DNA from: Candidatus Poribacteria bacterium
GTDB lineage: Bacteria > Poribacteria > WGA-4E > WGA-3G
DNA length: 64,000 bases
Assembly (NCBI GenBank): GCA_965214095.1
Contig: OZ243938.1
Location: forward strand, 2,592,001 to 2,656,000
Direction of reading: 5' to 3'
Shown here: positions 27,036 to 28,700 of the stretch, piece by piece
Layout: each line of letters starts with the position of its first letter
Position numbering within the stretch: position 1 is the first letter of the stretch
Program-made: the position numbers and the translations under genes
Notes under the pieces: generated by a model
What the model saw: only the letters and a program-made list of their open reading frames with translations
Told to the model about the DNA's origin: nothing
Database searches by the model: none

Positions 27036-28373
27036 ATGCGACACACTTCTGATACACTCTGGTTAGAAATATTGGAAACACTTGGTGAAGCTGCTGTCAA
27101 CGACATCTATCTACGACAAGTTTCCCCTCGTTATCTTGATAAGGAGTCTTTTAAAGTTGCTGTTCCATCTGATTACACGCAAGACGAAATTGAAAATAGA
27201 TTTCTTAGTGACATTACCAAGGTATTAGCGGATCGTATAAGTGCTGAATGTGCGTTTGAGATCGCTGTGGATGCTTCTCTTGCCAAAACCCCTGATGTTG
27301 ATAACTCAGAATCTACACTCAAAGAAACTATCCCTGAACCTACTGGTTTGAATCCGAACTATGTCTTTGACAATTTTTACGTTGGTCAGAGCAATCGGAT
27401 ATGTCATGCAACTGCCTATGCTGCGTCTCAAGACCTTGGCGGTGTGTACAATCCACTTTTTATATACGGCGGTGTAGGGCTCGGAAAAACACATCTCCTT
27501 CATGCTATCGGTAACCTTGTTCAAGCAGAAAATTCAAAACGTAAAGTTCTTTATGTTACATCCGAAACATTTATGAATGAATATATTGATTCAATAATGA
27601 ACCAGACTTCTGCCCAAGGGTTTCGTTCAAAATATCGTACAACCGATCTGCTGCTAATTGATGACATTCAATTTTTACAACGTAAAGAAGGAACACAAGA
27701 GGAATTCTTTAATACTTTTAACGATTTATATCTGAACTCAAACCAGATTGTGATGACAAGTGATCGGTCTCCCAGTATGCTTAAAAATCTTGAAGAAAGA
27801 CTTAGTTCACGTTTTGAATGGGGAATGGTTGCCGAAATTGATAAACCAAATTATGAACTTCGCCTTTATATTCTCCGTCGAAAATGTCAAGACCAAGGTC
27901 TTGATAATATTTCAGACGAAGTGTTGAACTATGTCGCAGAAATAGTCACATCAAACATACGAGAATTGGAGGGGACATTGATAAGTCTAAAAGCACGAGC
28001 ATCCATTCTTGATAAAGAGTTAACAATTGACTTTGCCCGTAGCGTTTTAAAAGATACATCCACACTTACAAGAGACAGGACACTTCGAAAAACTGCTACA
28101 CCAGAAACTATACAAGAACTTGTTGCTGAACATTTTCAATTAACCAATGGTGATTTAACATCGGCAAAACGGACAAAAGATCTAATCTACCCTCGTCAAA
28201 TTGCGATGTATCTTTGTAGGGAACTGACACAACTTTCTTTGACTGATATTGCTGAAGCATTTAATAGACAAAATCATAGAACCATTACTTATGCTTGTGA
28301 ACAGATTGAAGAACTACTTGAAGACGATGAAACAAAAAATGTAATACGACTTTTGACCGATGAATTGACGTAA
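27036..28373 (+). CDS. dnaA: Chromosomal replication initiator DnaA
   Basis: YNPLFIYGGVGLGKTHLL, LLLIDDIQF, RLSSRFEWG, NIRELEG, PRQIAMYLCRELT. Confidence 0.97.
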   Translation: MRHTSDTLWLEILETLGEAAVNDIYLRQVSPRYLDKESFKVAVPSDYTQDEIENRFLSDITKVLADRISAECAFEIAVDASLAKTPDVDNSESTLKETIPEPTGLNPNYVFDNFYVGQSNRICHATAYAASQDLGGVYNPLFIYGGVGLGKTHLLHAIGNLVQAENSKRKVLYVTSETFMNEYIDSIMNQTSAQGFRSKYRTTDLLLIDDIQFLQRKEGTQEEFFNTFNDLYLNSNQIVMTSDRSPSMLKNLEERLSSRFEWGMVAEIDKPNYELRLYILRRKCQDQGLDNISDEVLNYVAEIVTSNIRELEGTLISLKARASILDKELTIDFARSVLKDTSTLTRDRTLRKTATPETIQELVAEHFQLTNGDLTSAKRTKDLIYPRQIAMYLCRELTQLSLTDIAEAFNRQNHRTITYACEQIEELLEDDETKNVIRLLTDELT

Positions 28374-28410
28374 ATTCAGTTAGAAAAACCTCACCAGTAT
28401 GCGATTTATG

Positions 28411-28700
28411 TCAGTTATTATCAATCTTTGATAATAACTTGATAATAACTGATAATAACTCCCAATCTTTGGTAATAACTTGGTAATAACTTTTCTATTA
28501 AAAACAATGAATTGATAATATGATAATAAGTCTAAATTTATTATCATTTTATTATCAACTACAAATCCACTGCTAAATAGGGTTTAGAGGAGTTATTATC
28601 ATATTATCACTACTACTACTACTACTAAGTACAATTTAAATTGTACTTAATAATATAATTAGTACACTTTGATTATCAGACGTATAATATATTTTAATAT
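28411..28700. other. Replication origin oriC with non-canonical DnaA boxes (TTATTATCA), DnaA-trios and AT-rich tract
   Basis: Immediately downstream of dnaA; 8 perfect and 5 one-mismatch TTATTATCA boxes in both orientations; (ACT)6 at 28609-28626 next to two overlapping boxes; AT-rich sequence follows. Confidence 0.85.

Follow-up and report, generated by a model that had tools for sequence, protein, structure and literature searches.

A candidate Poribacteria replication origin with a re-coded DnaA box and a co-varied DnaA recognition helix

DnaA-box recognition is treated as nearly invariant, and few species-specific boxes are named in the accessible parts of reviews and of a 2026 paper. In the available text of a 2015 review a DnaA box follows the consensus TTATNCACA or has at most two mismatches from TTATCCACA, and Thermotoga maritima is there the sole analysed origin whose boxes have more than two (PMC4285127). 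The species-specific boxes given in such excerpts are the T. maritima 12-mer AAACCTACCACC and those of Helicobacter pylori (TCATTCACA), Mycobacterium/Streptomyces (TTGTCCACA), Caulobacter (TGATCCACA) and cyanobacteria (TTTTCCACA). According to the available part of another source, the contact residues of T. maritima DnaA are not conserved, except for one Arg (PMC7561715). Species-specific boxes with matching changes in domain IV are already known from these texts, T. maritima above all. Here we analysed a 64,000-nt stretch of a Candidatus Poribacteria genome (G000; C1:2592001-2656000 of its 5.2-Mb main contig C1), called the window below, in which all positions given without a contig are counted. 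We consider it highly probable that the spacer between dnaA and recF in this window is a replication origin (oriC) with a re-coded DnaA box, TTATTATCA, and a co-varied initiator. Set against the statement on T. maritima in the accessible text of the review (PMC4285127), TTATTATCA has three mismatches from TTATCCACA.

The spacer holds eight exact and five one-mismatch copies of TTATTATCA, which makes 13 within 264 bp. The exact copies are at 28415 (+), 28429 (-), 28440 (-), 28450 (-), 28521 (-), 28538 (+), 28549 (+) and 28593 (+), and the one-mismatch copies at 28470, 28481, 28513, 28601 and 28670. A ninth exact copy lies at 29175 within recF; nine in the window compare with 1.21 expected and were reached in none of 100 shuffles. 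At up to one mismatch the window contains 46 copies against 30.2 expected, a number reached in 1 of 100 shuffles. The canonical box is absent from the spacer, because TTATCCACA at up to one mismatch does not occur between 27296 and 30339; its 20 matches at this threshold in the window compare with 20.9 expected. The coordinates of the eight exact and five one-mismatch copies, and the missing canonical box, had been reported in an initial annotation of this DNA, and they hold. On C1 as a whole TTATTATCA is not over-represented (127 exact copies against about 122 from base composition), and the spacer is the only exact cluster of the contig, with eight copies in 300 bp where the runner-up has two. 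Canonical boxes at an origin elsewhere, which the initial annotation had named as an outcome that would contradict it, form no cluster on C1, where no 300-bp segment has more than three TTATCCACA matches at up to one mismatch. A second cluster of TTATTATCA at up to one mismatch (13 matches, C1:2155394-2155634) was rejected as a DnaA site, being a coding low-complexity tandem repeat rich in Asn, Gly and Asp.

Neighbouring boxes are mostly 8, 10 or 11 bp apart and fall in four groups: minus-strand tandems, an overlapping minus-strand pair, a plus-strand pair and an overlapping plus-strand pair. The first perfect box (28415-28423, +) is followed by three tandem perfect boxes on the minus strand (28429, 28440 and 28450; 28429-28458) with a spacing of 11 and 10 bp, whose homologous slot in canonical Poribacteria origins is an array of three TGTGGATAAct. 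Two tandem one-mismatch boxes, TTATTACCA, lie 11 bp apart at 28470 and 28481 (28470-28489, -), and a one-mismatch box at 28513 overlaps the perfect one at 28521 (28513-28529, -). The plus-strand pair consists of two tandem perfect boxes with a spacing of 11 bp (28538 and 28549; 28538-28557) and is homologous to the TTATCCACAggTTATCCACA pair of relatives. A GGGTTTAGAGGAG spacer separates it from the last, co-oriented pair, TTATTATCA + (A)TATTATCA (28593-28609, +), which is homologous to TTATCCACA-TATCCACA of relatives and in which TTATTATCA (28593-28601) shares 1 nt with ATATTATCA (28601-28609). A distal one-mismatch box, TGATTATCA (28670-28678, +), has its counterpart at the same place in relatives. 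The repeats resemble DnaA boxes in being clustered, asymmetric 9-mers that adjoin dnaA and occupy, slot by slot, the places that hold boxes in related origins. They do not follow the consensus, as TTATTATCA differs from TTATCCACA at positions 5, 6 and 7, of which 6 and 7 violate TTATNCACA.

The co-oriented pair adjoins what appears to be an unwinding module. In the basal unwinding system (BUS) of Bacillus subtilis oriC, as described in the available parts of two sources, DnaA-boxes 6 and 7 form a co-oriented pair that goes with at least three 3'-GAT-5' trios and an A+T-rich region (PMC8287927, PMC10721633). The trio consensus is 3'-GAT-5', and the search rule in the accessible text requires three or more NAN trios, with the central A on the trio strand, no farther than 16 bp from a DnaA box (PMC8287927). 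In the window the co-oriented plus-strand boxes at 28593 and 28601 lie upstream of (CTA)6 on the top strand, equivalent to (ACT)6, or six 3'-GAT-5' trios on the bottom strand (28610-28627, -). These begin 0 bp past the second box and 8 bp past the perfect box, and beyond them lies an AT-rich tract (28628-28700), a candidate unwinding element; A+T is 80% over 28610-28700, 75% in the spacer and 58% in the window. As in the B. subtilis system, trios accompany the pair at this locus, with six perfect 3'-GAT-5' trios abutting it; the locus differs in that the pair consists of new-type boxes. The earlier description of a pair with 1-nt overlap followed by (ACT)6 and an AT-rich tract was accurate, and its likeness to the B. 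subtilis module is borne out at the level of sequence, from which strand separation at this site is predicted. The C-rich spacer (tCCCC) of other Poribacteria is replaced by extra trios in the lineage of the window. Just past the trios, at 28629-28646, there is a perfect 18-bp palindrome, GTACAATTTAAATTGTAC, and a GGTACAATTTAAATT-like sequence is kept in most Poribacteria origins of any box type. This sequence could be part of the unwinding element or the site of another factor.

Domain IV of the DnaA encoded upstream aligns without gaps with that of Escherichia coli 1J1V (phmmer alignment), B. subtilis 8BTG and Mycobacterium tuberculosis 3PVP. The available text of one source lists R399, P423, D433, H434, T435 and H439 as base-specific contacts (PMC7561715), and that of another states that the helix from residue 434 reads 5'-TnCACA-3' in the major groove and R399 reads 5'-TTA-3' in the minor groove (PMC5742627). 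Residue-base contacts mentioned below rest on these two sources as far as accessible; any finer assignment is our own interpretation. R399 of E. coli aligns with the conserved R379 in AKRT (377-380; codon 28170-28172, +), and the helix R432-R442, RDHTTVLHACR, aligns with QNHRTITYACE (residues 412-422; 28269-28301, +). H434 and T436 are also kept (H414, T416), whereas the other columns read P423 to T403, R432 to Q412, D433 to N413, T435 to R415, V437 to I417, L438 to T418, H439 to Y419 and R442 to E422. The window DnaA and its box thus share with the canonical systems (E. coli 1J1V with TTATCCACA, and B. subtilis 8BTG) the family, the helix-turn-helix (HTH) fold region, an asymmetric 9-mer, the 5' TTAT, the minor-groove Arg and the His434 and Thr436 positions. 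They differ in box positions 5-7, which are T-A-T in place of C-C-A, in the DNA-facing D433N, T435R, L438T and H439Y, and also in R442E. Given how R399 and the helix divide the reading of the box, the kept Arg would lie opposite the box half that has not changed, and the altered helix opposite the half that has.

The residue numbers of the initial annotation (QNHRTITY 412-419, SLTDIA 401-406, basic-loop Arg kept) are correct, but two of its attributions need narrowing. It had counted the change of SLPEIG to SLTDIA with the new box; these residues are present, but across all box types Poribacteria have T, L, I, M, A or S where E. coli has P423, and SLTDIA is therefore not part of the signal. 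It had also taken QNHRTITY as a whole for the change. T435R, L438T, H439Y and R442E are indeed particular to the lineage of the window, but D433N is common to a larger clade with TTATC(A/C)ACA and TTATGCACA boxes, and Tyr at the H439 position also occurs in M. tuberculosis DnaA. A relative with the helix QNHTTIMY has GCA, CAA and CGA boxes, and Tyr alone therefore does not give TAT. In a domain IV search of 5.8 billion proteins, QNHRT[IV][TS]Y was found in 34 among the 120 matches listed, consistent with the 34 best-ranked. The listed matches of at most 54% identity in which the helix could be parsed nearly all have [RK]DH[TS]T, with REH and KHH as exceptions, and 37 listed matches that this pattern missed carry an RDH or KDH motif in their C-termini.

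The relation between helix and box was followed in relatives. From 388 loci found, the best 80 were kept (L032-L111; DnaA 50-95% identical); L078 was dropped as it has 44 nt downstream of dnaA, L051 (249 nt) and L098 (196 nt) were kept, and with the window this gives 80 loci. The DnaA relatives are nearly all from Candidatus Poribacteria, as sponge-associated metagenome-assembled genomes. An unbiased count of the commonest 9-mer in the 600 nt after dnaA gave one box-like word per locus, TTAT....CA, whose middle follows the helix, which is the correlation that the initial annotation had proposed to look for in related genomes. The 18 origins displayed share one order: a minus-strand tandem array, a second pair, a plus-strand pair, a GGGTTTAGAGCAG-like spacer, the overlapping pair, (TAC)n trios (present in 18 of 18, whatever the box type) and an AT-rich GGTACAATTTAAATT. 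The middle of each box, positions 5-7, is the only part of it that varies among them. Since box types differ neither in the trios nor in the remaining architecture, only duplex recognition would have been re-coded.

Matches to TTATNNNCA in the 450 nt after dnaA were taken as box sites and grouped by recognition helix. D-type loci (xDHTTxx[HN]; 24 loci, 163 sites) have CCA at 157 sites. N- or T-type loci (xNHTT[VI]IH; 28 loci, 299 sites) have CAA at 142, CCA at 71 and GCA at 66 sites, and the three V-type loci (EVHTTVLH; 26 sites) have ACA at 11, GAA at 8, GCA at 4 and CCA at none. R-type loci (QNHRTI[TS]Y; 24 loci with the window included, 230 sites) have TAT at 134 sites (58%), TAA at 44 (19%), also TAG and TAC, CAA at 10 and CCA at none. 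TAT does not occur at any of the 496 sites of non-R origins (N- or T-type included). Arg at the 435 position and T5-A6 boxes are concordant in 24 of 24 R-type and 56 of 56 other loci, hence in all 80. Together with the positional homology of the boxes and the gap-free alignment to 1J1V, this co-variation upholds the earlier proposal that positions 5-7 changed from CCA to TAT along with the helix. Five further genera of the family were added to the comparison: beside the QNHTTIMY relative, those with GNHTTVMN and RDHTTVMN have mostly GCA boxes, one with QHHTTVLH has GCA and ACA boxes and one with QNHTTVLH has GCA and CAA boxes. Within the genus, five DnaA columns alone fully separate the 24 R-type from the 10 T-type proteins, namely 383, 415, 418, 419 and 422 (E. 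coli V403, T435, L438, H439 and R442). Four of them (415, 418, 419, 422) are at i, i+3, i+4 and i+7 and form one face of the recognition helix.

Some further features of these loci were observed. L048 has a unique helix, QNHTTVLR, with Arg at the E. coli H439 position, and its origin prefers TTATGCACA (GCA at 5 of 8 sites). D-type loci L083-L110 have 2-6 boxes in the ~500 nt before dnaA, while N- and R-type loci have 0-1 canonical and 0-2 R-type boxes upstream of dnaA (26789-27035 was compared in the window). It seems that the upstream box cluster was lost in the clade that changed its box.

The same data could be read as relaxation and not re-coding: A+T pressure would have drifted the boxes to A+T-rich low-affinity variants while the helix changes broadened or weakened specificity, so that TTATCCACA is still bound well and the pair is not orthogonal. 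The N-type helix does tolerate CAA, CCA, GCA and CGA inside single origins, R-type origins mix several middles, and the new box is richer in A+T in a genome of 41% G+C. Pure relaxation, however, would leave some canonical boxes, and CCA is found at 0 of 230 R-type sites, just as TAT is absent from the other types. Moreover, one identical 9-mer makes up 8 of the window's 13 boxes, which speaks for a sharp new consensus and against drift. R- and T-type origins also occur in one genus, and differing base composition is therefore no obvious cause. We therefore regard relaxation as improbable.

Another possibility is that the repeats are operators of a different protein, for instance a Fur-family repressor on the GATAAT core, which the initial annotation had raised against its own proposal. 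GATAAT is found within each minus-strand copy and the genome encodes one FUR-family protein (C1:2744626-2744973). Sigma-70-like hexamers also overlap the repeats (12 against 4.1 expected), though these promoter-like matches are built from the boxes themselves and were set aside as uninformative; a terminator scan of the spacer found none. A Fur operator is dyad-symmetric and lies at the promoter of the regulated gene. The copies in the spacer, by contrast, are asymmetric 9-mers in tandem, in the same orientation, 10-11 bp apart and adjoining DnaA-trios. In sister lineages each of the slots taken by these repeats is filled by a canonical DnaA box. All 80 of the 80 loci show co-variation of repeat sequence and DnaA helix, and no second such cluster at promoters was found in the 5.2 Mb. 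Binding by such a repressor in place of DnaA is therefore extremely unlikely.

A re-coded pair of DnaA and box could work as follows. We infer that DnaA binds these boxes, with the residue-to-base assignments given here, and that replication starts there. The minor-groove Arg R379 (E. coli R399) would be kept to read the unchanged 5' TTA(T), and the major-groove helix, changed from R-D-H-T-T-V-L-H-A-C-R to Q-N-H-R-T-I-T-Y-A-C-E, would read T-A-T, not C-C-A, at positions 5-7. DnaA would assemble on about 13 phased boxes, chiefly the co-oriented pair at 28593-28609. This trio-proximal pair may nucleate an ATP-DnaA filament on the adjoining 3'-GAT-5' trios, which would open the AT-rich tract in the manner of the basal unwinding system of B. 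subtilis. The change itself may have been stepwise, with D433N first, in the larger clade with TTATC(A/C)ACA or TTATGCACA boxes, and then T435R, L438T, H439Y and R442E leading to T5 and T7. From co-variation and general recognition chemistry, the Asp433 position would go with a strict C6 and Asn at this position would accept C or A, while the set R415, T418, Y419 and E422 would go with T5 and a preference for T7.

Several points weigh against the spacer being an origin with a re-coded box. Firstly, the support is comparative throughout. Secondly, CCA is dominant in 5 of the 28 N-type loci and this helix pairs with several box variants; the helix sequence therefore does not fully determine the box sequence. 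Thirdly, the independent pairs number only 2 if well-supported branches are used and 4 if all branches are (sign test p = 0.5), so that no significance is possible and the association rests on anatomy, not statistics. The helix codons are also ~115-340 bp from the boxes, and linkage alone would therefore keep both together after a change. Lastly, raw cumulative GC skew and open reading frame (ORF) strand bias have their minima at ~3.15-3.22 Mb of C1, whereas dnaA is at 2.62 Mb, and the window has positive skew to the left as well as to the right of the spacer, without a sign switch. The skew measures were raw cumulative GC, ORF strand bias, orientation-corrected GC3/TA3 and intergenic skew. 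The orientation-corrected GC3 has its minimum at 2.59 Mb, but this curve is flat from 2.55 to 3.22 Mb. The cumulative GC skew that the initial annotation had proposed as a check thus gave a weak signal, and since all measures are weak and disagree (3.2 Mb against the 2.59-Mb plateau), GC skew was dropped as an origin locator; it neither supports nor refutes an origin at the spacer. On C1, GC skew and strand bias rise steeply from the minimum at ~3.15-3.22 Mb to ~3.8 Mb and are nearly flat over the rest. A large inversion, an island and an assembly issue are possibilities for the 3.15-3.8 Mb feature.

These minima, ~0.55 Mb from dnaA, together with the move of dnaN 2.5 Mb away, would fit a cluster where DnaA binds for regulation or titration, or a relic origin, with replication starting elsewhere. 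Against this, no other cluster of either box type was found on C1, the full unwinding module of co-oriented pair, six trios and AT-rich tract is conserved across the phylum, and the skew is weak and noisy, with the orientation-corrected minimum on its plateau. We consider such a site very unlikely and retain the spacer as the probable oriC.

Helix type and boxes travel together among these lineages, as those with a foreign helix type carry the matching boxes and are mosaics. We somewhat favour the view that domain IV and the adjoining box cluster form a linked specificity cassette of ~0.5-0.7 kb, which would exist in at least four matched versions (CCA, CAA/GCA, ACA/GAA and TAT) and be swapped by homologous recombination. 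With the last 50 residues of DnaA left out, the tree splits the R-type rows among three subclades that each include T-type rows; placing the NHRTITY rows in one clade costs 106 log-likelihood units (approximately unbiased test p = 4.6e-5, for a group named after the tree was seen). The T-type rows of the genus come together in trees computed from the final 300 nt of dnaA (masked at the helix codons) and from the initial 400 nt of oriC (masked at the box middles), with Shimodaira-Hasegawa-like approximate likelihood ratio test values of 89 and 97, respectively; in L048 and L055 the 400-nt segment extends beyond the recombination tract. When trees are built from dnaA nt 1-1038 or from recF, L055 and L048 nest, with support 100, in an R-type subclade. 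The identity of L048 with L109 amounts to 91-98% in dnaA nt 0-1022 and to 89-95% in recF, but is 62-84% in nt ~1100-1600, where L048 is nearer to T-type loci. The L048 cassette is at most 84% identical to the compared T-type loci in every sliding window, and the donor lineage is therefore unsampled.

The EVH-helix loci L096, L088 and L095, judged by sliding identity and informative sites, are a cleaner case than L048. Each is like a different QDH genome in its flanks (L096 and L086 share 89-96% identity along most of the flank upstream and 92-99% immediately downstream), and the three are mutually 79-95% identical across nt ~930-1500. Informative sites switch allegiance inside the tracts with helix codons and box triplets masked (Fisher p 1e-6 to 9e-20, in windows chosen after inspection). 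Logan contigs of one sample, possibly the source of the assembly, contain L048:3200-4500 in one piece with zero differences, and those of a second sample contain L048:3200-4121 with zero differences, which covers the left junction and the cassette. As the L048 junctions recur in these contigs, the mosaic is not confined to a single assembly; a further Logan run, X1, matches portions of the stretch at 90-95% likeness, as a relative would, and no conclusion was drawn from it. The alternative to exchange is accelerated local divergence after a switch. Within the genus, cassette trees put the T-type clade beside R-type subclade B, with the root on a long branch; R may have arisen once, with T cassettes imported, or T may have reverted.

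The gene order at the locus, from ORFs and Pfam matches, is dnaA, the 378-bp spacer (28374-28751), a recF-like gene, DciA and gyrB. The dnaA gene (27036-28373, +; 445 aa; Pfam Bac_DnaA 2.8e-63, Bac_DnaA_C 7.9e-26) is the only DnaA-family gene of the genome, in which a profile search gave a single PF08299 and a single PF00308 match. Its AAA+ domain (PF00308, residues 105-266) scores 213.4 bits against a curated cut-off of 23, and its domain IV HTH (PF08299, residues 356-424) 90.3 bits against 31.5. It has GLGKTHL (148-154), LLIDDIQF (206-213) and ERLSSRF including RLSSRF (255-260), which we take to be Walker A, Walker B and the box VII arginines. The recF-like gene (SMC_N / AAA; 28752-29900, +) lies downstream of the origin and is followed by DciA (29901-30530) and gyrB (30969-33509). 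In canonical-box Poribacteria dnaN comes after oriC, whereas in this genus recF is found there. Two tandem dnaN-like genes are at C1:5142298-5143870, 2.5 Mb from dnaA, and a third DNA_pol3_beta match (C1:2354396-2354752) lies inside a 615-aa frame. Contig C2 (32,066 bases) has a G+C content of 64% against 41% for the main contig and probably represents contamination from binning or a foreign element. A second, shorter DnaA-family gene is present in genomes of families f2 and f3, for instance L031 (G029:C1:1361276-1362364), of ~386-440 aa and 35-43% identical to the window DnaA, with a helix such as SHHTTVIRS. In family f4, which belongs to the same order, Bac_DnaA (PF00308) found no match at E <= 0.001 in any of six genomes (G021, G024, G027, G030, G154, G155; completeness 80-96%, 90-530 contigs each), compared with matches in 95 of 97 in f1, 10 of 10 in f2 and 28 of 28 in f3. 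Family f4 may be a Poribacteria family without DnaA, or the region may have failed to assemble.

Plasmid iteron/Rep groups are matched initiator-repeat pairs that exist side by side and are inherited or exchanged as a unit, and closely related ones can differ in specificity. The locus recalls them in general terms, but concerns an essential chromosomal DnaA-oriC pair and not a plasmid Rep. As in the described species-specific systems, a lineage-specific box goes with lineage-specific domain IV residues; the species-specific 9-mers in the available texts keep the 3' CACA, whereas the window box changes position 7. The window further differs from them in that the change lies inside one family and genus, with graded D, N, V and R types on one shared architecture, so that single residue-base correspondences become readable. 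What appears to be new is a box with three mismatches, including position 7 in CACA, that would have arisen within one family with intermediates while the origin is otherwise unchanged. In the literature searched we found no earlier description of such Poribacteria boxes; supplements (e.g., the BUS predictions for 2070 species, PMC8287927) and DoriC, outside this search, might list them. Searched together with DnaA, TTATTATCA gave unrelated papers, and alone it gave barcodes or primers among the matches listed.

Among close relatives with one origin architecture, four or more matched states of helix and box exist, and in one of them a change at three positions extends into the conserved core. 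They form a natural mutagenesis series with five candidate specificity residues and a predicted base preference for each state, for which TTATTATCA, TTATTAACA, TTATCAACA, TTATGCACA, TTATACACA and TTATCCACA are the box variants to use in preference tests with purified domain IV. Origin finders that seek TTATCCACA at one or two mismatches would miss the box cluster in such genomes. If the pair is orthogonal, as the initial annotation had claimed to be probable, it could seed engineered independent chromosomal replicons; the CAA sites of R-type origins, the favourite of the neighbouring N-type, qualify this claim. If the exchange of cassettes is true, an essential protein-DNA interface could change without an unfit intermediate in each lineage, and the interest would be higher if, speculatively, swaps are driven by conflict, such as the evasion of inhibitors or replicons that take advantage of the box of the host. 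Initiator-origin specificity in Poribacteria would with such exchange resemble a set of exchangeable alleles of an essential system.

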